Position numbers and translations under genes: made by a program
Shown here: positions 19,195 through 61,003 of the stretch, piece after piece
Layout: each line of letters begins with the position of its first letter
Numbering within the stretch: the first letter of the stretch is position 1
Source: Myxococcales bacterium
GTDB taxonomy: Bacteria > Myxococcota > Myxococcia > Myxococcales > 40CM-4-68-19
Assembly: GCA_020201435.1 (NCBI GenBank)
Contig: JAIVGS010000002.1
Coordinates: forward strand, 8,529 to 72,528
Length of the DNA: 64,000 bases
Direction: 5' to 3'
The notes under the pieces: generated by a model
Database searches by the model: none
What the model was told of the DNA's origin: nothing
What the model saw: only the letters and a program-made list of their open reading frames with translations

Positions 19195-20091
19195 ATGACT
19201 CCGGGGATCTACCTCGTCCACAAGCCCGCCGGGCAGACCAGCTTTTCGCTGGTGCAGGCGTTCATGGAAGAAGTGCGCGCGTCGGGCCTGCGGCGCGACA
19301 AGCTGCCGGCCTGCCACGGCGGCGCGCTCGATCCGTTCGCCGATGGGCTGCTGCTCATCCTCGCGGGACAGGCGACGCGCCTGATGGATCTGCTGCACCC
19401 GATCCCCAAGACGTACGTCGCCGAGATCGCCTGGGGCAGCGAGACCGACAGCGGAGACTCTCTTGGCCAAATGACCAAATCGACCAAATCGCTTACGGTG
19501 ACCGAGCGGGACCTCACCGCCGCTCTGGAGCAGTTCGTCGGTTGGCGCGAGCAGGTCCCCCCGTCGACGAGCAACAAGCGCGTGGACGGTGAACGCGCGT
19601 ACCGGAAGGCGCACCGGGGGGAAACCGTCGTCCTGCCGCCTTCGCGCGTGTATCTCCACTCGGCGCGCTGGCGCTCGCACGACCTCCCCCGCGGCAGCGT
19701 GCTCGAGATCGTCACCGGCGGCGGGTACTACGTCCGCTCGCTCGCGCGGGACCTCGGGCGTGCCACTGGCGCATTTGGTCATTTGACCAAATTGCACCGG
19801 ACCGCGATCGGGCCGTGGTCCGATCCCCGGGACGGCCGCGAGCTGATCCGCGGCGCGCAGCTCTATCCCTGGTGTCCCTCGGTCGAGATCGACGAGCGCG
19901 AGCTGGCCCTCCTGCGCGGCGGCCGCGGCATCGAGCGCCGGCCGCCGACGGCGCCCGAGTGGAAATTGCCCGACGGTTTTCCCGACCCGCACGCGCCGCT
20001 TCGGGCGTTGATCGCCGGCCGGATCGTCGCCCTGCTGCGCGAGCGCGACGGCAAGCTGCACGCCGCGCCGGTCCTGCGCGGGCCGCTGTGA
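19195..20091 (+). CDS. truB: tRNA pseudouridine(55) synthase
   Basis: ORF 19123..20091, from M25. Motifs are GIYLVHKPAGQTSF, CHGGALDPFADGLLLIL (catalytic Asp), KTYVAEIAWG and VPPSTSNKRVDGERAY. Confidence 0.9.
   Translation: MTPGIYLVHKPAGQTSFSLVQAFMEEVRASGLRRDKLPACHGGALDPFADGLLLILAGQATRLMDLLHPIPKTYVAEIAWGSETDSGDSLGQMTKSTKSLTVTERDLTAALEQFVGWREQVPPSTSNKRVDGERAYRKAHRGETVVLPPSRVYLHSARWRSHDLPRGSVLEIVTGGGYYVRSLARDLGRATGAFGHLTKLHRTAIGPWSDPRDGRELIRGAQLYPWCPSVEIDERELALLRGGRGIERRPPTAPEWKLPDGFPDPHAPLRALIAGRIVALLRERDGKLHAAPVLRGPL
19463..19497. repeat. TTGGTCA-NN-TGACCAA family, long (35-nt) form: TTGGCCAAATGACCAAATCGACCAAATCGCTTACG
   Basis: Read directly, inside truB. It encodes LGQMTKSTKSLT. Confidence 0.85.
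19775..19790. repeat. TTGGTCA-NN-TGACCAA family copy (TTGGTCATTTGACCAA, exact)
   Basis: Read directly, inside truB. It encodes FGHLTK. Confidence 0.9.
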
Positions 20092-20092
20092 T

Positions 20093-20118
20093 CTGATTTG
20101 GTCAAATGACCAAATCAG
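20093..20118. repeat. 26-bp palindrome CTGATTTGGTCAAATGACCAAATCAG containing an exact family copy (20098-20113)
   Basis: Read directly. It starts 2 nt after the truB stop and contains the ligD stop codon (20115-20117) in its right arm. Confidence 0.9.
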
Positions 20119-21974
20119 AGGCCGGCGACCGCCGCGAGCGCCTGGGCCGTCAGCCGCTGGTGACTCTTCCAGTATTCCTTCCACGGGTCGGCGCGCAGCC
20201 GCGGCACCGTCTGTACGGTGAATTTCAGCGGATCGAGACGCGCCGACAGCTCGTCCCACGCGATCGGGACCGAAACCGGCGCGCCCGGCCGCGCCCGCGG
20301 CGAGTACGCCGCGATCGAGGTGTTGGTCCGGTTGTTGCGCAGGTAATCGATCAGGATCTTCTTCTCCCGCCCGGCCTTCGCGTACTCCGTGGTGTACGAC
20401 GCGCGATGCTGTCGCTCGACGGCCCGCGCCAGGTCGCGCGAAAAAGCGAGACAGTCGGTCCAGTCGCGCTCCGGAGCGAGCGGCACCACCACGTGCAACC
20501 CGCGGCCGCCGGTGGTCTTGACGAAGCTCTCGAGACCGAGGGCCCGCAGCGCCGACCGCAAGAGCCGCGCGCCCCCGACCACCTGGCGCCATCGCACCTC
20601 CGGACCCGGATCGAGATCGATCACGATTCGATCCGGCAGCTCGACCGCCTCGTCGCGCGTGTTCCAGGTATGGAACTCGATCACGTCCATCTGCACCAGC
20701 GCGAGCACCGCCTCGGGAGTATCGGCGATCAGGTACTCGCCGAGCTTCTTCTTCTCCTGAATCCGCACTCGCCGCAGGGCATCGGGGGCCCAAACCTTGG
20801 AGTGCTTCATGAACGTGCAGTCGTCGCCGATCGCGCCGGGGCAGCGCAGGAGCGTGAGCGGCCGCCCGCGCAGGTGCGGCAGCTCACGCTCGGCGACGCG
20901 GTCGTGATAGCGAGCCAGGTCGAGCTTGGAGAGGGCCTCCGCGGGAAAGACGACGCGCTCCGGATGGCTGAGCGAAATCCCGCGAACGGCGGGCCGCTCG
21001 CGGCCGACCTCGCGCGGCGCCTTGTCCTCGCGCAGTCCCTGAAAGGACGGATGGCGCAGGTTTCCGCCTTCGGTCCACTCGGTGAACATGACCTCCGCGA
21101 TCAACGCCGGTTTCACCCAGCGCGCGTTCCGCCCGAGCCAGCCCGGCGGCCGCTCGTCGAACGGGCACTCGCGCGTGCGCAGCGGCTCGAAGCGCGCGCG
21201 CAGCGACCGCGCCGCGGAGCGCGTGTAGCCGGTGCCGACCTTGCCCGCGAATCGAAGCTTGCCCGCCTCGTTCACGCCGACGAGCAGCGCCCCGATCGCC
21301 TTGCCGGGCTCGCGGGACGATTCGGTGAAACCGCCGACGACGAACTCCTGCCGGCGGACGCACTTCGTCTTGACCCACGCCGTGCTACGCCCCTCGTGGC
21401 GGGGAGAATCGAGCCGCTTGGAGACGATCCCTTCGAAACCGAGCCGGCAGGCCTCGCGAAGGACCGACGCGCCGCCGCCGAGCCAGTGCTGCGCGAGACG
21501 GACCATGCCGGTCCGCGGAACGGCTGCCGCGAGCGCGCGCGTGCGATCGCGCAGCGGCATGCGTGACAGATCGCGGCCGTCGAGCTCGAGCGCGTCGAAG
21601 ACGAAATAGACCAGCTCGCCGCGCCGGTCCCCGGCGATCCAGTTCTGCAGCGCCTGAAAGCTGGTGCGCCCATCGGCGAGGAGGACCGCGATCTCGCCGT
21701 CGAGGAGGGCGCTGGACACGGGAAGGCTGCGAGCGGCCGCCGCGACTTCGGGAAAATCACGCGTCCAGTCGTTCCCCTTGCGGCTCAGGAGCCGTACGCC
21801 GGCGCGCGCGACGCGGCATCCGATCCGGTACCCGTCGTACTTGATCTCGTGCAGCCAATCGTCGCCATCGGGAGGCGCCGGGACGAGCGTCGCGAGCTGC
21901 GGCCGGTACACGCTCACGTCGTTAGAGAGCCGGTGATGCTCGGTCGACGCCATTGCGGCAACATCGTCGTCCAA
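20115..21974 (-). CDS. ligD: Bifunctional LigD-type ATP-dependent DNA ligase + primase-polymerase (no phosphoesterase domain seen)
   Basis: ORF 20115..21974 (619 aa). The ligase motif is EIKYDGYR, with EGIVSKR. The C-terminal Pol domain has KTTGGRGLHVVVPL and LIDYLRNNRTNTSIAAYSPR. ATG 21953 is an alternative start. Confidence 0.85.
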   Translation of the reverse strand: MDDDVAAMASTEHHRLSNDVSVYRPQLATLVPAPPDGDDWLHEIKYDGYRIGCRVARAGVRLLSRKGNDWTRDFPEVAAAARSLPVSSALLDGEIAVLLADGRTSFQALQNWIAGDRRGELVYFVFDALELDGRDLSRMPLRDRTRALAAAVPRTGMVRLAQHWLGGGASVLREACRLGFEGIVSKRLDSPRHEGRSTAWVKTKCVRRQEFVVGGFTESSREPGKAIGALLVGVNEAGKLRFAGKVGTGYTRSAARSLRARFEPLRTRECPFDERPPGWLGRNARWVKPALIAEVMFTEWTEGGNLRHPSFQGLREDKAPREVGRERPAVRGISLSHPERVVFPAEALSKLDLARYHDRVAERELPHLRGRPLTLLRCPGAIGDDCTFMKHSKVWAPDALRRVRIQEKKKLGEYLIADTPEAVLALVQMDVIEFHTWNTRDEAVELPDRIVIDLDPGPEVRWRQVVGGARLLRSALRALGLESFVKTTGGRGLHVVVPLAPERDWTDCLAFSRDLARAVERQHRASYTTEYAKAGREKKILIDYLRNNRTNTSIAAYSPRARPGAPVSVPIAWDELSARLDPLKFTVQTVPRLRADPWKEYWKSHQRLTAQALAAVAGL

Positions 21975-21989
21975 CGCGTCAGCTCACCC

Positions 21990-23285
21990 TCACCATGGCC
22001 GCGCTTGCGCGGTCTCGCGGATGAAGGCCTCGAATCCCGCGCGATCCCGCGCGGCCTGCGCGATGCGCTGCACCGCCTCGCGCAGGTCGGCGATGCCGGT
22101 CGCGACCGAAAGGCGCAGAAACTGCTCCCGGTCGGCGCCGATGCGCCCGAACGACTTGCGGTCCAGCGTCGCCACACCGTGGCGCATGAGCAGGAACATC
22201 TGGAACAGCGTCACCGGTGTCGTGCGCGCGCGCTCGTCCTCGGGGAGCTCGCCGTGCGCGGCGAAGACGCCGAGCTTCTCACAGACCCCGCGCACGTTCG
22301 GCCAGACGTAGAACGCGCCCGGCGGCAGCGCGCAGCGGATCCCCTCGACGCGGCTGAGCCCCTCGACGACGAGGTCGCGCCGCTCGCGGAAGGAATCGAC
22401 CATCCGCTTCAGGGTCGGCGCGCGCAGCGGCGAGTCCAGCGCGACGCGCGCCGCTTCCTGGGTATACGCGGCAACGCACGAGAAGTAGTTGATGTTGAGG
22501 TTGCGGAAGACCTGCGCCTCCGCGACGGTCGGCAGGAGCGCCCAGCCGACGCGGCCGCCCGTCCAGGCGTAGCTCTTCGAGACGCCGGAGACGACGATCG
22601 TGCGCTCCGACATGCCCGGAAGCGCGGCGATCGATCGGTGTCCCCCGTCGAAGACGATGTCCTCGTAGATCTCGTCGGAAAAGACCCGGGCGCCCGGGGG
22701 AAGCCTGGTACGGAGGACTTCGGCGATGCCGTCCAGATCTTCCGGCGACGGAACGCCGCCGGTCGGATTGGAGGGGAAATTGAGATAGACCAGCCGCGTC
22801 CGCGGCGTGATCAGCCGCGCGAGATCCTCGGCGGCGAACGCGAAGCCGCGATCCTCGCGCAGGTAGAGCGGCACCGGCACCGCGTCGATGAAGCCGGTGA
22901 ACGACTCGTAGATCGGAAATCCGGGCGAGGGATAGATGATCTCGTCGCCCGGATTCGCATACGTCTGCTGCGCGAATCCGATCGGAACCTTCGCTCCCGG
23001 AAAGATCACCACGCGTTCGGGCGCGGCGTCGATGCCCTGCGCGCGCATGTGCCGTGCCACCGCGTCGCGCAGCGAGAGCACGCCCTGCGGCTCGCAGTAG
23101 TGCGTGTTGCCCGCGTCGAGCTGGCGCTTGATCTCGTCGCGGATGTGATCGGGCAAAGGAAAATCCGGCTCGCCGATGTTGCAGCGGATGACGCGCAGCC
23201 CGCGCGACTCTGCCTGCGCGATCATCGGCCCGAGCCGGAACGCATTCTCGGTGCCGAGGCGGGCAACGCGGTCTGCGTACATCAT
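21990..23285 (-). CDS. Pyridoxal-phosphate-dependent aminotransferase (class I/II)
   Basis: ORF 21990..23285 (431 aa). Motifs are NIGEPDFPLP, NFPSNPTGG and the SGVSKSYAWTGGRVGW Lys motif. Confidence 0.85.
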   Translation of the reverse strand: MMYADRVARLGTENAFRLGPMIAQAESRGLRVIRCNIGEPDFPLPDHIRDEIKRQLDAGNTHYCEPQGVLSLRDAVARHMRAQGIDAAPERVVIFPGAKVPIGFAQQTYANPGDEIIYPSPGFPIYESFTGFIDAVPVPLYLREDRGFAFAAEDLARLITPRTRLVYLNFPSNPTGGVPSPEDLDGIAEVLRTRLPPGARVFSDEIYEDIVFDGGHRSIAALPGMSERTIVVSGVSKSYAWTGGRVGWALLPTVAEAQVFRNLNINYFSCVAAYTQEAARVALDSPLRAPTLKRMVDSFRERRDLVVEGLSRVEGIRCALPPGAFYVWPNVRGVCEKLGVFAAHGELPEDERARTTPVTLFQMFLLMRHGVATLDRKSFGRIGADREQFLRLSVATGIADLREAVQRIAQAARDRAGFEAFIRETAQARPW

Positions 23286-24502
23286 CGGCTCCGGAACCGC
23301 GAAAGCACGGCGAGCACCTCGTCGATGTCCGACGCCGTATGATCGGCGGAAACCTGGAAGCGGATCAATTGTTCGCCCTTCGGGACCACCGGATAGTTGA
23401 GGCCGGTGGCGAGCACTCCGCTCTCACGCAGGAACCGCACCAGCGCGCGGGTGCGGTCGGTGTCGCGCACGAGGAGCGGGACGACCGGGTGCTGGCCGTC
23501 GATCGTCTCGTAGCCGAGGGTCTTGATGCCGTCCCGGAAGCGCCTGGTCATCTCGCGCAGGTGCGAGAGCAATCGCGCGCCGTTGCGGATGATCTCGAGC
23601 GCCGCGAGCGCGGCGGCGGCCTCGCCCGGCGCGATCGGATTGGAATAGATGTAGAAGGGGTTCTTCTCGCGCAGGTACCGGATCACGCTCCCGTCCGAGC
23701 AGATGTACCCGCCGTTGACGCCGATCGCCTTGCCGAGCGTGCCGACCAGGACGTCGGCGCGGCCGCCGGTGATCTCCTCGGTCCCGCGGCCGGTGGCGCC
23801 GAACGCACCGACGCCGTGGGAGTCGTCGACGACCAGCACCACGCCGCGAGCGAAGCGGCCGTCGAACCGGGCGACGATCTCCTGGATCCGATCTACCGGC
23901 GCGTGATCGCCCCGCATGCTGAAGACGCCGTCGGTGATGACGATCGCGCTGTCGCATTGTCCGACGCACTCCTCGAGCTGGTTTTGCAAGGCCTGCAGAT
24001 TCAGGTGCGGGTAGATCTTGCGCAGCTTGGCGCGCGCCAGCTTCATGCCGTTGACGATGCAGTTGTGGTTCAGCTCGTCGCTGATCAGCGCCGTCTCCGG
24101 TGTCGAGAGGCTGAAGAGGACTCCGGCCACCGCGGTGTACGCCGAGCCCGCTGCCATCGCCGCCGGCCGCGCGTGGAACTGGGCCAGGGCAGCCTCGAGC
24201 CGGACGTGAGGCTGGTACGTGCCGCTGATGAACCGCACCGCGCCGGGTCCGACTCCGTACGCGTGCGCCGCCGTCTCTTCCGCGCGCGCCAGCTCGGGAC
24301 GCAGGGTGAGCCCGAGGTAGGAGTTCGAGTTCATCCGGATGAACTCGCGATCGCCCTCACCCTCGAGGACGAAGCGCGGCCCGCGCCCTTCGCGCGCCGG
24401 TAGCACCTTCACCACGATCGATTCGGCGCCTTTCGCGGTGCCGGCGTTGTCGAGCTCGCGGAGCTGCGTTTCCAAATCCTGTACGAATTTCGCAAGCGGC
24501 AT
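23282..24502 (-). CDS. kbl: Glycine C-acetyltransferase (2-amino-3-ketobutyrate CoA ligase)
   Basis: ORF 23282..24502 (406 aa). It belongs to the alpha-oxoamine synthase family (NSNSYLGL, DDSHGVGAFGATGRG, GTLGKAIG). It is adjacent to the threonine dehydrogenase gene. Confidence 0.8.
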   Translation of the reverse strand: MPLAKFVQDLETQLRELDNAGTAKGAESIVVKVLPAREGRGPRFVLEGEGDREFIRMNSNSYLGLTLRPELARAEETAAHAYGVGPGAVRFISGTYQPHVRLEAALAQFHARPAAMAAGSAYTAVAGVLFSLSTPETALISDELNHNCIVNGMKLARAKLRKIYPHLNLQALQNQLEECVGQCDSAIVITDGVFSMRGDHAPVDRIQEIVARFDGRFARGVVLVVDDSHGVGAFGATGRGTEEITGGRADVLVGTLGKAIGVNGGYICSDGSVIRYLREKNPFYIYSNPIAPGEAAAALAALEIIRNGARLLSHLREMTRRFRDGIKTLGYETIDGQHPVVPLLVRDTDRTRALVRFLRESGVLATGLNYPVVPKGEQLIRFQVSADHTASDIDEVLAVLSRFRSR

Positions 24503-24527
24503 GTTGCAAAATCTCCTATATAAATAT

Positions 24528-25466
24528 TCACAAAAGCTGGCGCAGCATGTCCTCGGTCATCGCCGCAAGCGAATAGCGCGGCGACCACCGCCACTCCTCG
24601 CGCGCGGCCGAGTCGTCTAGCGTCTCGGGCCACGAGTCGGCGATCGACTGCCGGCGCGGATCGACGGCGTAGTCGATGCGGAAGTCGGGAATGTGCGCGC
24701 GGATCGAATCGGCCAGCTCGGCGGGCGTGAAGTCGATGGCGCCGAGGTTGTAGGCGTTCCGGTGCTTGAGCTTGCCGGGCTCCGCTTCCATCAGCTCGAT
24801 CATCGCGCGGATCGCGTCGGGCATGTACATCATCGGAAGCCGCGAATCGGCGCGCAGATAGCAGGTGTACTGCTTGTGCGCGATCGCCTGCCGGTAGATG
24901 TCGACCGCATAGTCGGTGGTGCCGCCCCCGGGATCGGTCTTGTAGGAGATCAATCCGGGAAAGCGCAGCCCGCGGGTGTCCATGCCGAAGCGGCGGTGGT
25001 AGTCGTCGCAGAGCAGCTCCCCGACGACTTTCGTGACACCGTACATGGTGGTCGGGCGCTGGATCGTGACTTGCGGCGTCTTCTTGCGCGGAGTCTCCGG
25101 ACCGAACGCGCCGATCGAGCTGGGAAAGAAGAGCGCGCAGCCGTATTGCCGACCGGCTTCGAGCATGTTGACGACTCCGTCGACATTCAGCTGCCAGGCC
25201 TGCAGCGGCCGCGTCTCGCCGACCGCGGACAGCAGCGCGGCGAGATGGAAGATGGTGTCGATGCGATGCATCTGCATCGCCCGGGTGATGTGGTGCGGGT
25301 TGAGGCAGTCGATGAACTCGAAGGGCCCGCTGTCGCGCAGCGCCGGATCGGAGGGGAGCTTGACGTCGCTCGCCACCACCGCGGAATCGCCGTAGCGCTG
25401 GCGGAGCGCGACCGTCAGCTCCGAGCCGATCTGTCCCACCGCTCCGGTGACCAGGATGCGTTTCAT
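24528..25466 (-). CDS. tdh: L-threonine 3-dehydrogenase, NAD-dependent epimerase/SDR type
   Basis: This is the C-terminal 312 aa of ORF 24528..26756. Motifs are MKRILVTGAVGQIGSEL, the YGVTKVVGE (YxxxK) motif and a GLISYKTDPGGGTTDYAV loop. It is paired with kbl. Confidence 0.8.
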   Translation of the reverse strand: MKRILVTGAVGQIGSELTVALRQRYGDSAVVASDVKLPSDPALRDSGPFEFIDCLNPHHITRAMQMHRIDTIFHLAALLSAVGETRPLQAWQLNVDGVVNMLEAGRQYGCALFFPSSIGAFGPETPRKKTPQVTIQRPTTMYGVTKVVGELLCDDYHRRFGMDTRGLRFPGLISYKTDPGGGTTDYAVDIYRQAIAHKQYTCYLRADSRLPMMYMPDAIRAMIELMEAEPGKLKHRNAYNLGAIDFTPAELADSIRAHIPDFRIDYAVDPRRQSIADSWPETLDDSAAREEWRWSPRYSLAAMTEDMLRQLL

Positions 25467-37514: not shown

Positions 37515-38579
37515 ATGTTGAAGCCGCCGATCGCGCCGATGCTGGCCAAGCTCTCGACTGCGCTGCCCGAGGGGGACGGGTGGCTGTACGAGCCGAAATG
37601 GGACGGTTTTCGCGCGCTGGTCTTCCGCGACGGTTCGGACGTCTACCTGCAGAGCCGCGATCTGAAGCCGTTGAACCGGTATTTTCCCGAGCTGCTCGGA
37701 CCGCTGGGTGCGCAGCTGCCGGCGGGGTGCGTGCTGGATGGGGAGATCGTGATCGCCGACCCGTCGGGGCATCTCGACTTCGACGCGCTGCTGCTGCGGA
37801 TCCATCCGGCCGAATCGCGGATCAAGCTGCTCGCTTCGCAGACGCCGGCGTCGTACGTCGCGTTCGATCTCCTCGCGCGAGACGGCGAGGATCTGACCGG
37901 AACGGCGCAGGCGAAGCGGCGCGAGCTGCTGGAGAAGATCCTCTCACGGGCGACGCCCCCGCTGTACCTGACGCCGGCGACGCGCAACCGTTCGGTTGCG
38001 GGAGACTGGTTCTCCCGCTTCGAGGGTGCGGGCCTCGACGGTGTGGTCGCCAAGCGGCTGGAAGAGGCGTACCAGCCTGACAAGCGCGTCATGCTCAAGG
38101 TGAAGCACGCCCGCACCGCGGACTGCGTGGTCGCCGGTTTTCGCTGGCACAAGAACGGGCCGGGAACGATGGTCGGATCTCTCCTGCTCGGGCTCTACGA
38201 CGACTCCGGGACGCTGCACCACGTCGGCGTGACGTCCTCGTTCACCACCGCGGCGCGCAAGCAGCTCGTCGCGGAGCTCGAGCCGCTCCGCGCCGGCGCC
38301 GCGGAGAACCATCCCTGGCGCGATTGGGCTTCGTGGGCCGGCGAGCAGCGGATGCCGGGCGCGACTTCGCGCTGGAATCGCGGCAAAGACCTCTCGTGGG
38401 AACCGCTGCGCATCGAGCGGGTGTGCGAGGTTGCCTACGACCATCTGCAGGGCGACCGGTTCCGCCACGCGACCACCTTCAAGCGCTGGCGTCCGGACAA
38501 GCCGCCGTCCGAGTGCCGCTACGATCAACTCGAGGAGACGCCCGCTGCGGAGCTGAAGCAGATCTTCGGCGCGCGTTGA
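37515..38579 (+). CDS. ligC: ATP-dependent DNA ligase (LigC-like, ligase domain only)
   Basis: ORF 37515..38579 (354 aa). Motif I is YEPKWDGFR. Further motifs are LDGEIV, DGVVAKR and MLKVKH. Confidence 0.85.
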   Translation: MLKPPIAPMLAKLSTALPEGDGWLYEPKWDGFRALVFRDGSDVYLQSRDLKPLNRYFPELLGPLGAQLPAGCVLDGEIVIADPSGHLDFDALLLRIHPAESRIKLLASQTPASYVAFDLLARDGEDLTGTAQAKRRELLEKILSRATPPLYLTPATRNRSVAGDWFSRFEGAGLDGVVAKRLEEAYQPDKRVMLKVKHARTADCVVAGFRWHKNGPGTMVGSLLLGLYDDSGTLHHVGVTSSFTTAARKQLVAELEPLRAGAAENHPWRDWASWAGEQRMPGATSRWNRGKDLSWEPLRIERVCEVAYDHLQGDRFRHATTFKRWRPDKPPSECRYDQLEETPAAELKQIFGAR

Positions 38580-38619
38580 CGCTTGCCTGCGGCGACTTGT
38601 CCATTTTCACGGGCTCCGT

Positions 38620-39636
38620 ATGCTGAAAAGCGTGCCGGCGCGCAAGGAGCTGCTCCAGGTCGAAGGCCGCGAGGTCGCGATCTCGAATCCCGACAAGGTC
38701 TTTTTCCCGCAGCGCGCGATCACCAAGCTCGACCTGGTCAAGTACTACCTCGCGGTCGCCGCGGGCGCGCTGCGCGGAGCGGGCGGCCGGCCGATGGCGC
38801 TCAAGCGCTACGTCAACGGCGCCGAGGGAGCATTCTTCTTCCAGAAGCGCGCGCCGGAAGCGCGGCCGCTGTGGATCGAGGTCGTGGAGCTGAAGTTTCC
38901 CTCCGGGCGCACCGCGCGGGAGATCGTGCTGCGCGATGCGGCGCAGCTGGCATGGATCGTCAACCTCGGCTGCATCGATCTGCATCCGCACCCGGTGCGC
39001 GCGGAGGATCTCGATCATCCCGACGAGCTGCGCGTCGATCTCGATCCGGTCCCGAACGTGCCCTTCTCGCAGGTCCGCGAGGTCGCGCTGCTGGCGCGCG
39101 AGGTGCTGCGCGAGCACCGCCTGGAAGGATTTCCCAAGACCTCGGGTTCGCGCGGGATTCACGTCAACGTGCGGATTCAACCGCGCTGGACCTTCCAAGA
39201 CGTGCGCGCGGCTGCGCTCGCGCTCGCGCGCGAAGTGGAGCGCCGCGCGCCATCGCTGGCGACGTCGAAGTGGTGGAAGGAAGAGCGGCATGGCGTGTTC
39301 ATCGACTACAACCAGAACGCGAAGGATCGGACGGTCGCGTCCGCGTATTCGGTGCGGCCCACGCCCGACGCGCGAGTCTCGACGCCCCTCGGCTGGGACG
39401 AAGTTCCGAACGTCGACCCTGCGGAGTTCACGCTCGAGACGGTGCCACGGCGCTTCGCGGCGCTCGGCGATCCGCACGCGAAGATCGAGGAGGAGAAGGG
39501 CTCGCTCGAATCGCTGCTCGAGCTGTCGGCGCGGCAGAAATCGGAAGGGCAGGGCGATGCGCCGTGGCCGCCGCATTACGCCAAGCAGGACGACGAACCG
39601 CCGCGCGTGCAGCCCTCGAAGCGCCGCAAGCGCTAG
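38620..39636 (+). CDS. LigD-polymerase-domain-like primase-polymerase (Prim-Pol)
   Basis: ORF 38620..39636 (338 aa). Motifs are ISNPDKVFFP, DLDP, KTSGSRGIHVNVRI and FIDYNQNAKDRTVASAYSVRP. Confidence 0.85.
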   Translation: MLKSVPARKELLQVEGREVAISNPDKVFFPQRAITKLDLVKYYLAVAAGALRGAGGRPMALKRYVNGAEGAFFFQKRAPEARPLWIEVVELKFPSGRTAREIVLRDAAQLAWIVNLGCIDLHPHPVRAEDLDHPDELRVDLDPVPNVPFSQVREVALLAREVLREHRLEGFPKTSGSRGIHVNVRIQPRWTFQDVRAAALALAREVERRAPSLATSKWWKEERHGVFIDYNQNAKDRTVASAYSVRPTPDARVSTPLGWDEVPNVDPAEFTLETVPRRFAALGDPHAKIEEEKGSLESLLELSARQKSEGQGDAPWPPHYAKQDDEPPRVQPSKRRKR

Positions 39637-40157: not shown

Positions 40158-42410
40158 ATGAACCGCATTGCGACATTGCTCTTCCTTTTCGCCGCCCCTT
40201 CGTTCGCGCAAGCCCAGGGTGCGCTGTTCGAACGCGCGCAAACCGGGCCGAGCCCGAATCTGCGCGCGGTCGCCGAGCGCGTGCGGGTGACGATCGATCA
40301 CCAGTATGCGGAGACCGTGCTCGAGCAGGAATTCGAAAACACGTCGGGCGCGCGACTCGAGGGTCGCTACCTCCTGCGCACCGCGGGCGCGACCGTCGAA
40401 GGATTCGCCTACTGGAACGGCGAGCAGAAGATCGTCGGCGAGGTCTTCGAGAAGCAGCAGGCGCGCAACCTCTACGAGAACGTCGTCGGCCGCAGGCGCG
40501 ACCCGGGGTTGCTCGAGCAGATCGGCGAAGGAAGCTTCGCGTTCAACGTCTTTCCGATCGAGCCGCGCGAGAGGAAGCGCGTCGAGGTCCGCTTCGGCCA
40601 GCGGCTCGCGCGCGAAGGCCGAACGATGCAGTACCGGCTGACGCTCGGTGGCGGCGAGAGCGACGTCGTCGCCGAGATCTCCGATCCGCATCCGATCCTG
40701 CGCATCGATTCGCAGAGTCATCGGCTCGACACCGAACGACTCGACGCGCGGCACGCGCGGGTGCGCGCCTTCGCCGGGCCATCGGGGACGCGAGACCTGA
40801 TCATCGACGTCGAGGTCAACGCCGATCCGTGGCAGCCGACCGCCGTCGTGCATCGCGATCCGGGCCAGGACCCCTACCTGGTGCTGCAGATGGCCGCGCC
40901 GGCGACGGTCGCGGCGAGCGAAGTCAGCCGCAAGGACGTGACCGTGGTGATCGATCGATCGGGCAGCATGACCGGCCCGCCGATGGACCAGGCCTGCGCT
41001 GCCGGCGAGCTGGTCGTGCGCCGGTTGCGGCGGGGCGATCGCGTCAACGTGATCGCCTTCGATCACACCGTCGATCCGCTGTTCACGAAGCCGCAGCCGG
41101 TCGAGACCGCGCGCGATGCGGCGCTGCAGTTCATCCATCGCATCCGCGCGGGCGGCGGCACCAACATCGCCGCGGCGCTCGACGCCGCGCTCCGCGCGCA
41201 GCACGGCGGGACCGAGCCTCACATCGTCCTCTTCCTCACCGACGGCCAGTCGGACAGTGAATCGGCGCTGCGGGTCGCTCACGACGATCGCGGCGACACG
41301 CGCGTGTTCACCTTCGGCCTCGGGAGCGAGGTGGAGAAGGCGCTTCTCTCGCGGCTCGCTTCGACCAAACGCGGGCGCTTCACGTACGTCGAGAGTCCGG
41401 AGGTCATCGAGCAGCGGGTGGGCCGCCTCTTCGACCAGATCGAGTCGCCCGCGCTGGTCGGGCTCTCGCTGGAGGCGCGGGGCGCGACGCTGCTGCGCAC
41501 GTATCCCCGGACGCTGCCGGATCTCTCGGCGGGCGACGACCTGCTCGTCGCGTCGCGGGTGATGGGCGCCCCGGGGTCGCAGCTCGAGCTGGTCGTGCAC
41601 GGCACGCTCGGCGGGCGGCAGGTTTCGTATCCGGTCAGCGTCACGCTGCCGGAGCGCGCCTCGCACCCGTGGGCGGGGCGGCTGTGGGCGAAGTCGCGCA
41701 TCGACGACGTGCTGGAGGAGATGGCGTTGACCCGCGATCCGCCCAACGAGCTGAAGGACGAGGTCATCGAGCTCGGGCTGGCGTACGACCTGGTGACCCC
41801 GTACACGTCGTTCCTCGCCGTGCCCGAGAGCGAGCTCGCCGGCGAGCAGGCGCTGACACTGGCGCAGATGCGCGAGCAGCGGGCGAAGGTCGTCGCGGCG
41901 AACGCCGACGCGGCGGCGCTGTCGCGCAAGAACATGCCGCCCGGCGATCCGCTGCTGACGGTGAACGCGCCGCGGGATGCCCTGCAGGTCACCGCATATT
42001 TCCCGTTCGGGCTGGTGCGCGACCTGAAATGGGACGATCACCTCGAGAAATGGACGCTGCGTTTCCTGGTGCCAGTCGGTGTCGCCGACGGCGATTACGA
42101 GGCGATGGTGGTCATCGTGCGCCGCGATCACACCATCGAGCTGGCGAAAGCGGCGTACACGATCGACAGCAAGGAGCCGGAGTTCGAGGTCGATGCCGCG
42201 CAGGCGATCTCCGGCGTGCACGTACGCGTAATCGCCGCCGAGCCGGCGCGGCGTGTGACCGTGGCTCTCGCCCGCGATCCGCGGCAGCGCATCGAGCTCG
42301 CCGGCGACGGCCGCGTGTTCGAAGGCGATCTTCCCGTGCGCGGCACGCTGCGGGTCGTGGTCGCGGACATGGCGCGGAACGAGACCTCGCGCGAGGTCGA
42401 GCCGCGATGA
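40158..42410 (+). CDS. Secreted VIT (vault/inter-alpha-trypsin) + von Willebrand factor A domain protein
   Basis: ORF 40071..42410, from M30. It has a signal peptide (MNRIATLLFLFAAPSFAQA), a VIT-like N-terminus and a VWA MIDAS motif (VVIDRSGSM...TNIAAAL...LFLTDGQSD). Confidence 0.8.
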   Translation: MNRIATLLFLFAAPSFAQAQGALFERAQTGPSPNLRAVAERVRVTIDHQYAETVLEQEFENTSGARLEGRYLLRTAGATVEGFAYWNGEQKIVGEVFEKQQARNLYENVVGRRRDPGLLEQIGEGSFAFNVFPIEPRERKRVEVRFGQRLAREGRTMQYRLTLGGGESDVVAEISDPHPILRIDSQSHRLDTERLDARHARVRAFAGPSGTRDLIIDVEVNADPWQPTAVVHRDPGQDPYLVLQMAAPATVAASEVSRKDVTVVIDRSGSMTGPPMDQACAAGELVVRRLRRGDRVNVIAFDHTVDPLFTKPQPVETARDAALQFIHRIRAGGGTNIAAALDAALRAQHGGTEPHIVLFLTDGQSDSESALRVAHDDRGDTRVFTFGLGSEVEKALLSRLASTKRGRFTYVESPEVIEQRVGRLFDQIESPALVGLSLEARGATLLRTYPRTLPDLSAGDDLLVASRVMGAPGSQLELVVHGTLGGRQVSYPVSVTLPERASHPWAGRLWAKSRIDDVLEEMALTRDPPNELKDEVIELGLAYDLVTPYTSFLAVPESELAGEQALTLAQMREQRAKVVAANADAAALSRKNMPPGDPLLTVNAPRDALQVTAYFPFGLVRDLKWDDHLEKWTLRFLVPVGVADGDYEAMVVIVRRDHTIELAKAAYTIDSKEPEFEVDAAQAISGVHVRVIAAEPARRVTVALARDPRQRIELAGDGRVFEGDLPVRGTLRVVVADMARNETSREVEPR

Positions 42411-43584
42411 TCGCGGCGCTTCTCCTCGCGGCGATCTTCACCGACACCGCGCAAGTCGAGAGCATTGCCACCGCCGGCGCGACCCTCTGGGCCGCGACCG
42501 GCGGCGGCGTCGAACGGTACGATCTCGCCACCGGCAAGCGGGTCCGCGTCCACACCATCGGGCCGACGCTGCGGATTTGGTCAAATGACCAAAACGGTCA
42601 AATCGCTCATGCGCGCACGCGGGATTCCGAGTGCATCCTCGAGGGCGAGACCGCAGAGTGCATTGCGGCGCCAGCGCTGCCGCCGTCGATCCCCTCGGTG
42701 ACTCCGCTGTTTCACGGAGCGCGCGAGACCGCACGCGTCGTCGCAAACGGCACGACCGTCGTCGCCACCGCGGGCAAGGGCATTTGGTCAAACGACCAAA
42801 TGCTCACCCCGCCAGGCCAGATCTGCGGCAATTACGTCGAGGCGCTGGCCGAATTCCAGGGAAAGCTGTGGGTCGGCGGGTTCGACGGCGGCCTCTGTGT
42901 CCTGGACGGGCAGCGTTTCCGAGCGGTGGCGGGGCCGTTCCGGATGATCAACGACCTGCGCACCACGCCGAAAGGCCTCTACGTCGCCTCGGCCGAGGGC
43001 CTCTACTTCACCCGCGACGGCCGCCGGTTCCGCCGCGAAGACCGCATCCGCGAGCGGGCCGTCAACCACCTCGCCGTCGGCGGCCGGTGGCTCTTCGCCA
43101 CCACGCCGTTCGCGCTGTACGCCGTCCGGCTCGATGGCCGGATCGTCAAGCGCTGGCGAAAGCCGGCCGGCTCGACCGCCCTGCAATCGGTCGCGGTGAG
43201 CGGACCGAATCTCTGGCTCGCGTCGGAAGACGTCGGCGTCATCCGCATGCGCCGAGGCAGGTTCGAAGCTTACGACCGCGCCTGGGGATTGCCGTCCAGC
43301 TGGACGGTCGACGTCGCACCGGCGTCCGACGGCGGCGTCTGGGCGGCGACGCTGCGCAACGGCTCGGTCCATCTCGACGCCAACGGACGCGTGATCGAGC
43401 TCGGCCCCGACCCGCACGCCTGGGGACTGCGCCTCTACCAGGACCGGGGCCGCACGCTCTTCGGCACGCAACAGGGCCTCGAAGGCATCGAGGGCCTCCC
43501 CGATCCGCACGTGCACGCGATCCTCCGGACACGCGACGGCCTCTGGATCGGCACCGAGGGCGGCCTGGTCCTGCTCGACGATGC

Positions 43585-43588
<4 letters not shown>
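42407..43588 (+). CDS. beta-propeller-like repeat protein (two-component-regulator-propeller-like)
   Basis: This is the C-terminal 393 aa of ORF 41669..43588, with an ATGA overlap onto the VWA gene. It carries repeated G.LW(V/A)(G/A)T / GL..... motifs. It contains two copies of the TTGGTCA palindrome. Confidence 0.6.
42577..42611. repeat. TTGGTCA-NN-TGACCAA family, long (35-nt) form: TTGGTCAAATGACCAAAACGGTCAAATCGCTCATG
   Basis: Read directly, inside the propeller gene. It encodes IWSNDQNGQIAHA. Confidence 0.9.
42781..42802. repeat. TTGGTCA-NN-TGACCAA family copy (CATTTGGTCAAACGACCAAATG; core 42784-42799, 1 mismatch)
   Basis: Read directly, inside the propeller gene. It encodes GIWSNDQM. Confidence 0.8.
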
Positions 43589-53861: not shown

Positions 53862-55043
53862 ATGTTCGTCGAGTTCCTCTACGAGCTGCGCGATCGGGGA
53901 GTCAAAGTCGGCCCCCAGGAGGCGATGTCGATCGCGCAGGCGCTGGAATTCGGCTTGCACAAAGGGACCCTCGACGGTTTCTACGAGACCGCGCGCGCCC
54001 TCTGCGTGCACCGCGAGCAGGATCTCGACGCGTTCGACCGGGCGTTCGCCCACCACTTTCGCGGCGTGCCCGACGAGGCGATCGCGCTGACCGAAGAGCT
54101 GATGGCATGGCTTCAGCAGCCGAAGTCTCGCCGGCAGTTGACCGAGCTCGAGCAGCAGCTTCTGCAACGGATGGATCTCGAGCAGGTCCGCCAGCAGATG
54201 CGCGAGCGGCTCGCGCAGCAGCGGCAGCGGCACGATCGCGGAAACCGCTGGATCGGCACCGGCGGCACGTCGCCGCACGGAAGCGGCGGGACGAATCCGG
54301 CCGGCATCAAGGTCGGCGACGCGCCCGGCGGCCGCGGCGCGATCGAGATCGCCGGCGAGCGCCATTTCAAGGACCTGCGCTCCGACGTCACCCTCGACAC
54401 CCGGCAGATCGAGGTCGCCCTCAGGCGGCTGCGCGCATTCGTCCGCGAGGGCGCGGAGGACGAGCTCGACATCGAAGGAACGATCGACAAGACCGCGCGC
54501 AACGCCGGCGAGCTGGAGCTCGAGCTGCGGCCGCAGCGGCGGTCGAATCTGCGCGTCCTGCTCCTCCTCGACGTCGGCGGATCGATGGACCCGCACGCCG
54601 AGGTCTGCGAACGGCTCTTCTCGGCGGCCAGGCGCGCGACCCATTTCAAGGAGCTGCGCACCTTGTATTTTCACAACTGCATCTACGGGCGCGTCTACGA
54701 GCGCGCTTCGCTGATGCACGGCATCGACGTGCTGCAGCTGTTGCAGGAGTGTGATCCGTCGTGGAGGCTGATCGTCGTCGGCGACGCGTTGATGAGCCCC
54801 TGGGAGCTGCAGTCAGCCGACCCGCGATGGAGCTGGAGCGACGATTCCGGCGCGCCGGGCATCGCCTGGCTGGCGCACCTCGGACAGCACTTTCCCCACT
54901 CGGCGTGGCTCAATCCCGAGCCGGAGGTCGCGTGGTACGGGACGGCCGAGGTCATCCGCCGCGTGTTTCCGATGTACCGCTTGACGCAGGACGGCCTCCT
55001 CGAAGCCGTCCACCACCTGATGCGCGGCGGAGCGCGGCGTTAG
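53862..55043 (+). CDS. VWA-domain protein, CoxE-like
   Basis: ORF 53862..55043 (393 aa). The N-terminus is MFVEFLYELRDRGVKVGPQE. The C-terminal VWA region has LLLLDVGGSM. It lies 5 nt after the MoxR gene. Confidence 0.8.
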   Translation: MFVEFLYELRDRGVKVGPQEAMSIAQALEFGLHKGTLDGFYETARALCVHREQDLDAFDRAFAHHFRGVPDEAIALTEELMAWLQQPKSRRQLTELEQQLLQRMDLEQVRQQMRERLAQQRQRHDRGNRWIGTGGTSPHGSGGTNPAGIKVGDAPGGRGAIEIAGERHFKDLRSDVTLDTRQIEVALRRLRAFVREGAEDELDIEGTIDKTARNAGELELELRPQRRSNLRVLLLLDVGGSMDPHAEVCERLFSAARRATHFKELRTLYFHNCIYGRVYERASLMHGIDVLQLLQECDPSWRLIVVGDALMSPWELQSADPRWSWSDDSGAPGIAWLAHLGQHFPHSAWLNPEPEVAWYGTAEVIRRVFPMYRLTQDGLLEAVHHLMRGGARR

Positions 55044-56455: not shown

Positions 56456-56564
56456 CGCCGGCGGTCTCCTATCACGACGCATCGACGCCGTCCCACGTCC
56501 GCGGGACCGAAAGTCTCGGTCCGGAAAGTCTGATCGAAAGCGCCGATCAAATAAGCTGCCGGGC

Positions 56565-57413
56565 GTGCTGCTGCGCCTCGTCCGCGATTTCCGCCGCGCG
56601 ATGGACCTGTCGCTGGTGCTCGATCAGGAGAAGATCGAGCACCAGCTGCGCAGCGTCGGCGAGGAGCAGTGGGCGCTCACGATCGGCGACGAGGCGGACG
56701 CCGAGCGGGCAGAGAAGGCTTTGATCGCGTTCGAGCGGGAAAATCCGCCGGTCGCAAGCCGCAAGCCGCAGGCCCCGCTGTCCGACGGCATCGGCGCCGG
56801 CGTGGTCTTCGGCCTCGCGCTGCTCGCGCTGCAGATCTGGACTGGCCCCGAATCGGACAACGCGTGGTTCGTCCGCGGCAGCGCCGAGGCATCGCAGATC
56901 GTGCGCGGCGAGTGGTGGCGCGCGATCACCGCGCTCACGCTGCACGCCGACGCCGGACATGCGGTCGGAAACGCGCTCCTCGGCGGCCTGTTGCTCACCC
57001 TGCTCGCCCGGCGCCTCGGCTCCGGCGTCGCCTCCGCGGCGATGTTGCTCGCCGGCATGCTCGGCACGTTTGCCGCCGCCGAGCTGATGCGGCGCCACTT
57101 CGTTTCCGTCGGCGCCTCGACCGCGGTGTTCGGCGGGCTCGCCGAGCTCGCCGCGCTGCAGGCGGCCGATCCCGAATCGCGCCGGCGCGCCTGGATCCCT
57201 CTCGGGGCCGGCGTCGCGCTGCTCGGGTTTCTCGGATCGTCGAAGCGCGCCGATCTCGCCGGCCATCTCTGCGGTTTCGCCGCCGGCGTCGCGATCGGCT
57301 TCGCGGTCTCGCGCCTTCCACGGCTGCGGAGCAAGGCCGCCCAGTCGGCGCTCGCCTGCGCCGCCGCATGTACGCCGGTCATCGCCTGGCTGCGCGCTCT
57401 CTTGGTCAACTGA
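56565..57413 (+). CDS. Rhomboid family intramembrane serine protease
   Basis: This is the C-terminal part of ORF 56217..57413. Motifs are WWRAITALTLHAD, the catalytic VGASTAVFGG and AGHLCGFAAG. The start is GTG 56565 (ATG 56601 is the alternative). Confidence 0.7.
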   Translation: MLLRLVRDFRRAMDLSLVLDQEKIEHQLRSVGEEQWALTIGDEADAERAEKALIAFERENPPVASRKPQAPLSDGIGAGVVFGLALLALQIWTGPESDNAWFVRGSAEASQIVRGEWWRAITALTLHADAGHAVGNALLGGLLLTLLARRLGSGVASAAMLLAGMLGTFAAAELMRRHFVSVGASTAVFGGLAELAALQAADPESRRRAWIPLGAGVALLGFLGSSKRADLAGHLCGFAAGVAIGFAVSRLPRLRSKAAQSALACAAACTPVIAWLRALLVN

Positions 57414-57417
57414 CCAA
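57402..57417. repeat. TTGGTCA-NN-TGACCAA family copy (TTGGTCAACTGACCAA, exact)
   Basis: Read directly. It contains the rhomboid stop codon (57411-57413) and ends 20 nt before the glgB ATG. Confidence 0.9.
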
Positions 57418-57437
57418 CGCGGTCCATATTCCCCGCC

Positions 57438-59312
<1,875 letters not shown>

Positions 59313-59404
59313 CGCTGCTGCACGCCGCCGAGCGCTCGGGCCGCAGTGCAGGCAGGCGACCGCCCGCAATTGTAGCGGTGTCGCGCAGGCCACAGCTTTC
59401 CCAC

Positions 59405-60367
59405 ATGCGCTTCGGCTTCCTGATGGATCCGCTCGAGCACGTCCGCGTCGACCACGACACCACCTTCGCGCTCATGCTCGAGTGTCGCCGCCGCGGCATC
59501 GAGGTGCGCGAGCTGCGGCAGGAGTGGCTCTTCCTCGCCGGCGGACGGGCGCGGTCGCGGATGCGGACCGTCGACGTCGATCGCGGCGGCGATCCGCATT
59601 TCCGCGTGCTCGCCGACTGCGACGCGCCGCTCGCCGATCTCGACGTGCTCTTCCTGCGCAAGGATCCGCCGGTCGACGTCGACTTCCTCCGCGCGACGCA
59701 GATGGTCGAGCTCGGCCCCGGACCGCTCTGGATCAATCATCCCGCCGGCCTGCGCGCCGCCAACGAGAAGCTGCTCGCGCTGCGCTTCGCCGATCTCGGT
59801 CCACCGTCGATCGTGACCCGGGAGATGACGCGGCTGCGTTCGTTCATCGCGGCTGCCGGAGGCGACGCGGTCGTGAAACCGCTCGATGGCTGCGGAGGGC
59901 AGGGCGTGGTCCGCGTGCGCGAGGGCGATCCGAACTTCAACGCGCTGCTCGAGATCGCGACCGGAGGCGGGCGCACGCCGGTCCTGGCGCAGTCGTTTCT
60001 GCCGGCGGTCCGCGAAGGTGACAAGCGCATCATCGTCCTAGACGGCGAGCCGGTGGGCGCGGTCCTGCGGGTGCCGAAGCAAGGCGAGCTGCGGGCCAAC
60101 TTCGCGGCCGGCGGTCGCGCCGCCGCGGCGCCGATCACCGCGCGCGATCGCGAGATCTGCCGCCGGCTCGCGCCCGATCTGCGCGCGCTCGGCCTCTGGC
60201 TCGCCGGGATCGACGTCATCGGCGGCAAGCTCACCGAGGTGAACGTGACCAGCCCGACCGGCCTCGTCGAGATCGACGCGCTCTCCGGAGGCTCGCTCGA
60301 GGCGCGGGTGATCGATTTCGCGCTCGCTCGCGCCGGATTGCGCGGCCGGGCCGCCGCGGGTCTGTGA
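59405..60367 (+). CDS. gshB: Glutathione synthetase (prokaryotic ATP-grasp type)
   Basis: This is the C-terminal 320 aa of ORF 56669..60367. Motifs are MRFGFLMDPLEHVRVDHDTTFALMLE, VVKPLDGCGGQGV, GDKRIIVLDGEPVGA and LTEVNVTSPTG. Confidence 0.85.
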   Translation: MRFGFLMDPLEHVRVDHDTTFALMLECRRRGIEVRELRQEWLFLAGGRARSRMRTVDVDRGGDPHFRVLADCDAPLADLDVLFLRKDPPVDVDFLRATQMVELGPGPLWINHPAGLRAANEKLLALRFADLGPPSIVTREMTRLRSFIAAAGGDAVVKPLDGCGGQGVVRVREGDPNFNALLEIATGGGRTPVLAQSFLPAVREGDKRIIVLDGEPVGAVLRVPKQGELRANFAAGGRAAAAPITARDREICRRLAPDLRALGLWLAGIDVIGGKLTEVNVTSPTGLVEIDALSGGSLEARVIDFALARAGLRGRAAAGL

Positions 60368-60963
60368 GGCTGGTGAACGCCGTTCACCGCGCGGCCGCGA
60401 TCCTTCTCGCCGGCGCTGCCTGCGGCAACGACGCGGGCGCCGGCGCCACCTTCGAGGGGTCCATCCACGGCTTGGCCATGCAGCCAAAAGACGCCATCTC
60501 CTCGCCGGCGACGGTCGCGTTCTCCTCCGGCTCGGCGCCAGTCGCCGCGATCGTGATCGGCGACGTGCCCCAACTCTGCGCGAAGGTGAGCGCCAACCTC
60601 GAGCCCAGGAGCTCGACGCTGCTGCTGCTCTTCCTCGCCGACGTGAACCCGGTCAGCGGCGCGATCCAGCCGGCGGCCGGAACCGGATCGTTTCCGGTCT
60701 TCAGGATCGGCAACGGCGCCGCCCCACCTCACTTCGCCATGGCCTCGTTCGGAGCGAACGACGCGACCTGCCACGCCATCGACGCCGATTCCGCCGACGC
60801 GGTCACCGGCTCCGTCACGCTCACCGCCAACGGGGCGGGGGCGTACAGCGGCATGTACGATCTCACCTTCGACAGCGGCGACCACGTCACCGGTTCGTTC
60901 CACACCGGTACCTGCCAGGCTTTGAGCGACTACCTCACCCGGTTCACGCACGATTGCGGGTGA
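60364..60963 (+). CDS. Hypothetical secreted protein / possible lipoprotein
   Basis: ORF 60364..60963 (199 aa). It has a signal-like N-terminus ending ILLAGAACGN (weak lipobox), Cys pairs, and an ATGA-type overlap with gshB. Confidence 0.55.
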   Translation: MRLVNAVHRAAAILLAGAACGNDAGAGATFEGSIHGLAMQPKDAISSPATVAFSSGSAPVAAIVIGDVPQLCAKVSANLEPRSSTLLLLFLADVNPVSGAIQPAAGTGSFPVFRIGNGAAPPHFAMASFGANDATCHAIDADSADAVTGSVTLTANGAGAYSGMYDLTFDSGDHVTGSFHTGTCQALSDYLTRFTHDCG

Positions 60964-60968
60964 AGTTC

Positions 60969-61003
60969 TTGGTCAAATGACCAAATCGTTCAAATCGCTC
61001 AAG
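60969..61003. repeat. TTGGTCA-NN-TGACCAA family, long (35-nt) form: TTGGTCAAATGACCAAATCGTTCAAATCGCTCAAG
   Basis: Read directly. It is intergenic, between two convergent stops (60963 and 61015). Confidence 0.9.

Follow-up and report, generated by a model that had tools for sequence, protein, structure and literature searches.

The 64,000-nt window that we analyzed (~70% G+C), a stretch of contig JAIVGS010000002.1 from a Myxococcales bacterium, carries a 16-bp palindrome, TTGGTCA-AA-TGACCAA, within unrelated genes, at gene ends, and between genes, together with three 35-nt strings that are its long versions. On balance, we read this palindrome as a functional site at the DNA level, most likely the high-affinity site of a dimeric, sequence-specific DNA-binding protein. 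Positions below are window coordinates unless an L-number is given; L-numbers denote loci fetched from genomes and metagenome contigs. Genes were called with a codon-statistics model and then checked against Pfam.

The three long copies had been picked out in an earlier note made from the sequence alone, and all of them lie where that note placed them. The first (19463-19497, + strand; TTGGCCAAATGACCAA followed by ATCGACCAAATCGCTTACG) is inside truB, an open reading frame (ORF) at 19195-20091 with a Pfam TruB_N match of 1.1e-31, and is read LGQMTKSTKSLT. The second (42577-42611, + strand; TTGGTCAAATGACCAA followed by AACGGTCAAATCGCTCATG) is inside a propeller gene, ORF 42407-43588, that matches Pfam Reg_prop, and is read IWSNDQNGQIAHA. 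The third (60969-61003, + strand; TTGGTCAAATGACCAA followed by ATCGTTCAAATCGCTCAAG) is non-coding. ORF 60364-60963 stops 5 nt before it, the stop of the convergent ORF 61015-61599 lies 11 nt beyond its end, and it fills most of the 51-nt gap that separates these two genes. Both coding frames are as the note had given them, and its view that protein homology cannot explain the common string is borne out: the element acts at the level of nucleic acid.

These sequences are far more frequent than expected by chance. Because the 35-nt strings are AT-rich in a window of high G+C content, they stand out, and a scan of the whole window with the 35-nt consensus, allowing up to three mismatches, matched only these three places, all on the + strand (0.00 expected at three mismatches, 100 shuffles). 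The palindrome itself, scanned as TTGGTC-N4-GACCAA with at most one mismatch, occurs at 11 sites in 64 kb compared with 0.08 expected. Five of the window's sites are exact 16-mers, for which the composition-based expectation in 64 kb is ~1e-6. Sites occur at a density of ~1 per 6 kb and are grouped in clusters of 1-3, with ~5 clusters in 70 kb, and 7 of the 11 fall within coding sequence. Outside full sites, 8-mer half-sites number 0-1 in the window vs. 0.25-0.57 expected, and an excess of 7-mer half-sites consists of the ordinary codon strings CTG GTC AAG and CTG ACC AAC. Since half-sites alone are not enriched, the unit is the dyad.

Codon alignments indicate that selection acts on the nucleotides of these sites. 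We aligned truB from seven lineages in which synonymous codons are only 55-64% identical to those of the window; of 146 codons whose amino acid never changes, 34 keep their nucleotide sequence as well. These 34 include an unbroken run of six site codons, GGT CAT TTG ACC AAA TTG, an outcome with a chance of ~0.23^6 = 1.6e-4 if codons are assumed to be independent. The other nucleotide-invariant truB codons nearly all end in G or C, and the site codons are rare, AT-ending ones in this window: GGT makes up 6% of its amino acid's codons, TTG 7%, AAA 15%, CAA 9%, and TCA 2%. Given the peptide FGHLTKL, the observed codon string has a probability of 6.8e-7. The propeller copies show the same codon freeze, including CAA ATC GCT CAC in the tail. 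Non-coding DNA behaves similarly: among five aligned sequences (four of them distinct), a single T-to-G change is the only difference between TTGGTC and CGCTCA of the intergenic long copy, and the spacers on its two sides differ by indels (0-14 nt and 19 nt). A rare-codon pause signal was rejected, since these 16 nt turn up in two frames and outside coding sequence as well.

Variation within the sites is also informative. Across 49 distinct site sequences, the logo has invariant arms, TTGGTC/GACCAA, a center reading AAAT, and weak symmetric flanks of AT or GA. Palindrome sites are found in both orientations, and the center flips from AA to TT between orthologs while the arms stay fixed (propeller site 1, L101 vs. 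the window). Taken together with the lack of lone half-sites, these features point to a dyad that is predicted to be recognized by a dimer.

The long form and the individual sites

The long form consists of the palindrome, a 9-nt unit that repeats its right arm (CGNNCAAAT after TGACCAAAT), and then a conserved CGCTCAC. Its internal 9-nt repeat runs TGACCAAAT / CGNNCAAAT / CGCTCAnnn and is perfect in the window's truB copy (GACCAAATC twice). The tail holds the extra half-site that the earlier note had described as a third half-site-like block, with the conserved CGCTCAC in addition. Across species, CAAATCGCTCA is invariant at three loci, and its two N positions vary, which marks the tail as separately constrained.

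To see how far the long form extends, we searched 185,579 species-representative genomes and JGI metagenome contigs with the pattern AAATGACCAAANCGNNCAAATCG. The source genome lies outside this genome set, and the genome scan returned none of the window's own copies. Ten contigs matched, of which seven are orthologs of the three window loci (truB in L001 and L004; the intergenic copy in L003, L005, L006, and L009; the propeller gene in L007), and L002, L008, and L010 are chance matches without the palindrome. A relaxed look at the fetched loci added one long-form variant, at L011 10922, directly after truB on the opposite strand; it reads TTGGTCACTTGACCAA-ATCGCTCATATCGCTCAC and is antisense to both neighboring genes. 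P0184, a propeller homolog known from its protein sequence, has six extra residues, and its propeller site 2 is read SWSFDQNVQIAHG, precisely the peptide that a long form would give at that place. Judged from this protein sequence only, P0184 appears to carry a further long-form copy.

Each known long-form locus was recovered 1-4 times in the scans, and no other locus was recovered. This pattern suggests that a genome contains few, if any, additional strict long forms, in which case all of them would lie in one 41.5-kb interval, as deduced rather than counted. In all fetched loci, the tail CGNNCAAATCGCTCA always adjoins the palindrome and is never found alone. Because of this and the small number of loci, we regard the long form as a rare variant of the site and not as a dispersed repeat family. 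The note had made its claim depend on additional long-form copies in the rest of the genome, and with 3-4 loci recovered, the outcome of this check goes, in essence, against a repeat family.

Two further sites are associated with truB. One (19775-19790, - strand; TTGGTCATTTGACCAA on the + strand) lies inside the gene in the peptide FGHLTKL. It is the oldest site, and no other is found in L013, the most distant site-bearing relative. The other (20093-20118, no strand assigned) is a short site enlarged to a perfect 26-bp palindrome, CTGATTTGGTCAAATGACCAAATCAG, between the truB stop and the stop of a convergent LigD gene. This fused LigD gene (ligase and primase-polymerase; 20115-21974, - strand) is one of two end-joining loci, the second being a split pair at 37515-39636 (+ strand), and no Ku gene was seen in the window. 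Upstream of truB, a site near the 3' end of a group-1 glycosyltransferase gene at 15553-16698 (16559-16574, - strand) is read LGHLTK. A weak or degenerate site, TTGGTCAGCTGGCCAA (16025-16040, + strand), is read LGQLAK; its arms have one mismatch and its center differs, and it could represent a proto-site, the remnant of a decayed one, or a chance match.

The remaining sites lie in the second half of the window. The propeller gene contains a second site, TTGGTCAAACGACCAA (42784-42799, + strand), 207 nt past its long copy and in the same frame, where it is read GIWSNDQ. Farther along, TTGGTCAACTGACCAA (57402-57417, + strand) gives a rhomboid gene its TGA stop and lies 21-36 nt upstream of the glgB start codon. 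A DUF2780 gene at 61583-62128 has an internal site, TTGGTCAAATGGCCAA (61905-61920, + strand), read LGQMAK, and takes its ATG start codon from a decayed site, TTGGCCGGATGACCAA (61575-61590, + strand). In its third phase, the palindrome contains TGA whichever way it is oriented, which leaves two phases usable inside a gene. Five coding sites read L-G-Q/H-M/L-T/A-K and two read I-W-S-N-D-Q, and the TGA phase is confined to gene ends, as at 57402. In L101, palindromes at 13534-13549 and 13599-13614 supply the stops of two convergent genes 65 nt apart. Scans for a sigma-70 promoter or an intrinsic terminator at the sites found none.

We also considered a link to dif and the chromosome terminus. A scan for AT-rich 28-mers gave no dif-like site, but it did pick out a BlaI-type operator pair: an 18-bp palindrome, GTGCTAATGGATTAGCAC, occurs twice, 28 nt apart, at 16707-16752, upstream of a BlaI-type repressor gene (16765-17130) that is followed by a BlaR1-type sensor gene (17130-19184). 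The two copies probably serve that BlaI/BlaR1-type system as its operators and are unrelated in sequence to the 16-bp palindrome. The terminus idea had come from cumulative GC skew, which climbs to a maximum near 42 kb, not far from the propeller sites, before declining; over 64 kb, this is weak evidence. Two other features of the window stand apart from these sites. A purine-rich repeat at 3652-3724 (GAAAAGGAGAAGGAAAAC units) would encode (EKEKEN)n at the start of a predicted ClC channel ORF (3636-5795), whose true start codon may lie downstream of this tract. An 81-nt stretch at 24468-24548, in which G+C drops to 18% (28-nt window) vs. 70% for the genome, spans the start of an aminotransferase gene (23282-24502, - strand) and the 3' end of an epimerase gene (24528-25466, - strand) and may be a strong promoter or regulatory region.

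Conservation in relatives and origin in place

Both short and long sites reappear at orthologous positions in all of the close relatives examined. The truB long copy is strict in L001 and L004 and has a one-mismatch variant in L011. All three truB sites (two internal and one directly past the stop) occur in L004, L011, L105, and L106, and both internal sites are present in L012. The propeller gene has two sites each in L007, L100, and L101, with orthologous long copies in L007 and L100 and only the short form in L101. Both L003 and L005 carry sites at the rhomboid stop codon (exact at L003 900), at the intergenic spot, at the DUF2780 start codon, and in the DUF2780 interior, where they share the same one-mismatch form at the orthologous position. 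The site that has decayed at 61575 in the window is an exact palindrome in L003 (5095), L005 (2007), and L006 (872), and the glycosyltransferase site at 16559 has counterparts in L011 (4313) and L012 (890).

The long copies carry marks of their own loci. Propeller long copies (window, L007, and L100) read AAACG, and truB and intergenic long copies read AATCG, with the exception of the intergenic copy in L006 (AGCG). Their distribution indicates that these locus-specific variants predate the species splits, and such stable differences mean that the copies are not being homogenized.

The sites are confined to one clade. In close relatives, loci of 13-21 kb contain 2-8 sites each. Sites thin outward, with three in L012, four in L105, three in L106, and one in L013, and none were found in 62 kb of L102, L103 (VBLC01), and L104 (GshB 78%, 72%, and 64% identical). 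By the same protein, the closest cultured relative is Cystobacter at 57% identity, which places the lineage in a deep uncultured soil clade. The window's TruB, propeller, and GshB proteins are each matched at 100% identity by an entry on a 76-kb contig, and assembly GCA_046262975.1 is 99.9% identical over its shared part.

Comparison with homologs lacking the sites indicates that nucleotide substitutions, together with small in-frame changes, built them in place, both inside genes and at their ends. TruB homologs without the site read GD-P-LGRVVARGDAS-LT and those with it read GD-L-LGQMTKSSKSL-LT, at equal length; at site 1, the ancestral GRVVARGDAS has thus become GQMTKSSKSL with no change in length. 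This agrees with the earlier note, which had observed that the TruB protein is not lengthened and had favored conversion or recoding over simple insertion. When 120 TruB homologs were classed by loop sequence, the strict long form was found in 8/120, a long-like form in 11/120, the palindrome only (e.g., LGQMTKSADAARLT) in 8/120, and a partial form (GQVTK or GQTTK) in 8/120; 77/120 had no site, and the loop pattern was not matched in 8/120. At truB site 2, GALAHLRALRRT has become GA(F/L)GHLTKLRRT, with AHLRAL replaced by GHLTKL at equal length. Propeller site 2 changed from GLWLDGRRIT to GIWSNDQMLT, again at equal length and laid over an existing W..D; distant homologs read GLWLDGRR. The long form at propeller site 1 exceeds the short form of L101 by 9 nt (three codons), the change being from CAAATCGTG-CAC in L101 to CAAAACGGT-CAAATCGCT-CAC. 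This 9-nt difference and one of 18 nt in P0184 equal one and two lengths of the internal 9-nt repeat and are therefore accounted for by tandem duplication. The ortholog comparison that the note had proposed therefore shows derived residues in which nucleotides, not amino acids, are held fixed; ancestral residues conserved at the protein level, the outcome it had named as contrary to its claim, were not seen.

A predicted binding site and its rivals

The layout of the sites fits an operator, as a palindrome of 15-17 bp with ~7-nt arms suits a helix-turn-helix dimer. By analogy, the particular architecture here (7-nt inverted arms, a 2-nt center, TTG..CA-nn-TG..CAA) suggests a helix-turn-helix dimer of the TetR type. 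We propose that a dimeric DNA-binding protein would occupy the palindromes and that it would be a protein of a single clade of uncultured soil Myxococcota. At the long sites, the third half-site and the CGCTCAC tail would recruit an additional protomer, another dimer, or a partner protein, which would make the 3-4 long sites special among ordinary ones. Of the readings offered by the earlier note, its composite binding site ("dimer plus one") fits best, with the binding itself predicted. Near-perfect, clustered, intragenic sites suggest, by comparison with SlmA sites, matS, and parS, a chromosome-organizing role or looping between multiple operators, and simple control of a single promoter seems less likely than a chromosome-level role.

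Several observations weigh against a binding site. No TetR_N or ParB domain, and no candidate binder, was found in the window or related loci (Pfam and annotations). The motif differs from the box of the TetR-family regulator RutR at positions 4, 5, 12, and 13, of which 4 and 13 are the most important, and a match on Acinetobacter plasmids is an 18-mer with a BLAST E value of 4, so that this link rests on context and not on statistics; both comparisons are taken up below. The number of sites rests on the window and the fetched loci, the source genome being outside the scanned set. Moreover, the sites are far nearer invariance than typical transcription-factor sites, and behavior like that of parS or uptake sequences fits equally well. 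Finally, conservation alone cannot tell selection for binding from a drive that restores the motif.

Such a drive is the main rival to the binding site, although we consider it unlikely. The motif would then have no binding function of its own and would be maintained by biased DNA uptake, in the manner of DNA uptake sequences (DUS) and uptake signal sequences (USS), or by cleavage or nicking with short-patch conversion, and the long form would have spread by conversion. Sites that arise in place by multi-nucleotide replacement at unchanged length, with the intermediates GQVVAR, GQVTK, and GQTTK among TruB homologs, are consistent with this process, as are near-invariant, clade-specific, clustered sites, and a 19-nt tail common to three loci is more easily copied than convergent. 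P0184, with its long-form peptide at propeller site 2 and no site-1 extension, looks like a transfer between sites 200 nt apart, although this case is deduced from protein sequence. The relative L106 has a gene with TfoX_N, a competence-regulator domain (20718-20900), beside an ATP-dependent ligase gene; however, the sites are not linked to any nuclease or competence machinery. Known uptake sequences are also asymmetric, mostly single units, and present at ~1 per kb, whereas lone half-sites are not enriched here and the sites lie in clusters at ~1 per 6 kb. The long-form variants of each locus stay distinct across species, with no continuing homogenization.

A bolder version of the binding proposal, which we hold to be rather unlikely, is a new clade-specific chromosomal system in which a DNA-binding protein, or an activity that combines binding with repair, has its near-perfect sites actively written into coding sequence and maintained, and in which the few long sites, spread over a single 42-kb interval, mark a landmark, such as a loading or nucleation center, comparable to parS or matS. 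Within such a system, a self-propagating "operator drive" might overwrite genes by short-patch conversion.

It is improbable, in our judgment, that the element acts in RNA, where a transcript hairpin with a single-stranded tail would serve as a landing site for an RNA-binding protein or small RNA and would influence mRNA stability, 3' ends, or translation. All three window long copies are sense to the containing transcript, but the fourth (L011 10922) is antisense to both of its neighbors. Sites do occur at or after stops and between convergent genes (window 20098, 57402, and 60969; L101 13534 and 13599), and the 26-nt palindrome past truB folds at -15.4 kcal/mol (z = -7.9). However, the core hairpin is weak (-6.4 kcal/mol, 5-bp stem) and the tail is unpaired, and the truB copy has a stem-breaking change and folds no better than shuffled sequence (z = +0.33). 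Conservation falls on sequence rather than on pairing, as no compensatory change was seen among the 49 distinct site sequences. A search for a known RNA family was negative: nothing in Rfam reached the gathering threshold, and what appeared at E<10 was noise. Nor is there a terminator-like T tract. A resemblance of CGTTCAAATCG to a tRNA T-loop was also set aside, with no supporting stem and no UUC in the truB copy.

A miniature mobile element, either an in-frame insertion like a Rickettsia palindromic element (RPE) or a miniature inverted-repeat transposable element, or a REP/REPIN sequence moved by a RAYT (Y1) transposase, is highly improbable and largely refuted: although the palindrome is a short repeat with many copies and its long form adds 9 nt in the propeller gene and 18 nt in P0184 (protein only), truB and propeller site 2 have kept their length, the additions are accounted for by tandem duplication, no target-site duplications were visible at the flanks when we made this check named in the earlier note, all copies are at orthologous positions in relatives, most window sites are in coding sequence as opposed to extragenic REP, and no GTAG-type REP head is present. 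The RPE-type insertion that the note had entertained thus finds no duplicated flanks, orthologous positions throughout, and only one extra variant locus (L011). Genes for Y1_Tnp (IS200/RAYT-type, ~200 aa) do occur in two related loci, at L105 829-1443 and L106 4015-4620, adjoining a MarR gene, but they have no palindrome within several hundred bases, and a RAYT/REP origin through them was rejected. No Y1_Tnp gene was found in the window (Pfam), including at its MarR gene (10932-11369). A phage origin was rejected as well. The 16-mer has 86 matches in IMG/VR, all on low-GC contigs (median GC 0.38, none >0.6) and none with two copies; being single and low-GC, they are attributable to chance.

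If the binding proposal is correct, codon usage, and even the protein sequence itself, has repeatedly given way to a 16-bp protein-binding site, also in housekeeping genes like truB. This would be a clean natural example of DNA-level vs. protein-level selection, clade-wide in soil myxobacteria, and would point to a DNA-binding protein with many chromosomal sites. Long and short sites would offer a natural contrast in stoichiometry (35-mer vs. 16-mer), and the boundary between site-rich and site-free relatives would give a handle for phylogenetic profiling of the protein.

Comparison with known systems

A literature search for the motif string returned only unrelated plant papers. We compared the palindrome with known site families by layout and behavior. 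HIP1 of cyanobacteria, GCGATCGC, is 8 bp long, occurs more than once per gene, and is tied to methyltransferase sites (PMC5861425, PMC4390886). Like HIP1 and DUS/USS, the sites here are lineage-specific motifs laid over coding sequence, conserved beyond codon usage, and created in place. By contrast, they form a 16-bp dyad that is sparse and clustered and has no isolated half-sites, and this dyad differs from DUS/USS in its symmetry as well as its spacing. RPEs are similar in being palindromic and in frame within unrelated genes. However, they are insertions of ~100-150 bp that lengthen the host protein and form a scattered mobile family, whereas the element here is 16-35 nt, mostly replaces codons, and is fixed at orthologous positions. 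The myxobacterial nucleoid protein CdbA, with >500 sites, was rejected as the binder because its motif is a GC-rich direct repeat.

The closest likeness in architecture is with the RutR box of Escherichia coli. RutR belongs to the TetR family, its consensus is TTGACCAnnTGGTCAA, and 14 of its 20 in vivo targets are inside genes (PMC2475637). Both motifs are 16 bp with 7-nt inverted arms and a 2-nt center, they agree in form at 12 of 14 arm positions (TTG..CA / TG..CAA), and in both the sites are mostly intragenic and read as different peptides. The inner arm dinucleotide is swapped, however, being GT/AC here and AC/GT in RutR, and this involves the key contacts 4 and 13. The RutR consensus itself is not matched: with three mismatches allowed, the RutR pattern matched only three of the palindrome sites and two unrelated sequences in the window. 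RutR sites are also degenerate (7-13/14 matched) with little sign of function, whereas those here are near-exact, made of rare codons, and conserved across species, and no TetR gene was seen near the myxobacterial sites.

A second comparison comes from plasmids. The exact 18-mer TTGGTCAAATGACCAAAT occurs on 45 Acinetobacter plasmids (BLAST against a plasmid collection). On pAR3 of Acinetobacter radioresistens (NZ_CP038025.1; L108 2501-2555), an exact ATTGGTCAAATGACCAAAT and a second sequence, ATTGGTCGATTGACCAAAT, lie 36 nt apart, start to start, an arrangement shared by the 44 other Acinetobacter plasmids. On pAR3, this pair is 120-175 nt upstream of a three-gene operon for a metal-dependent hydrolase, a TetR/AcrR regulator that is a typical TetR-fold protein, and a BtrH-domain protein. 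By its position, the pair looks like an unannotated TetR operator pair with the same core as the myxobacterial palindrome. As context rather than proof, this suggests that the palindrome is the kind of sequence that a TetR-type dimer uses.

In behavior, the nearest parallels are parS (bound by ParB), SlmA-binding sites (SBS), and matS (bound by MatP), which are short, near-invariant palindromes that are often intragenic, hold orthologous positions, and cluster over tens of kilobases. The palindrome has no sequence similarity to parS TGTTNCACGTGAAACA, SBS GTGAGTACTCAC, or matS GTGACRNYGTCAC by direct comparison, and a one-sided extension of 19 nt is not known from any of the three families. A Pfam search of the window found no parAB, slmA, or matP gene and no ParB/ParA domain, which sets the sites apart from parS and ParB. 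Still, the sites described here are likewise short, near-invariant, intragenic, orthologous, and clustered, and SlmA itself has the TetR fold and binds in the form of a dimer of dimers.

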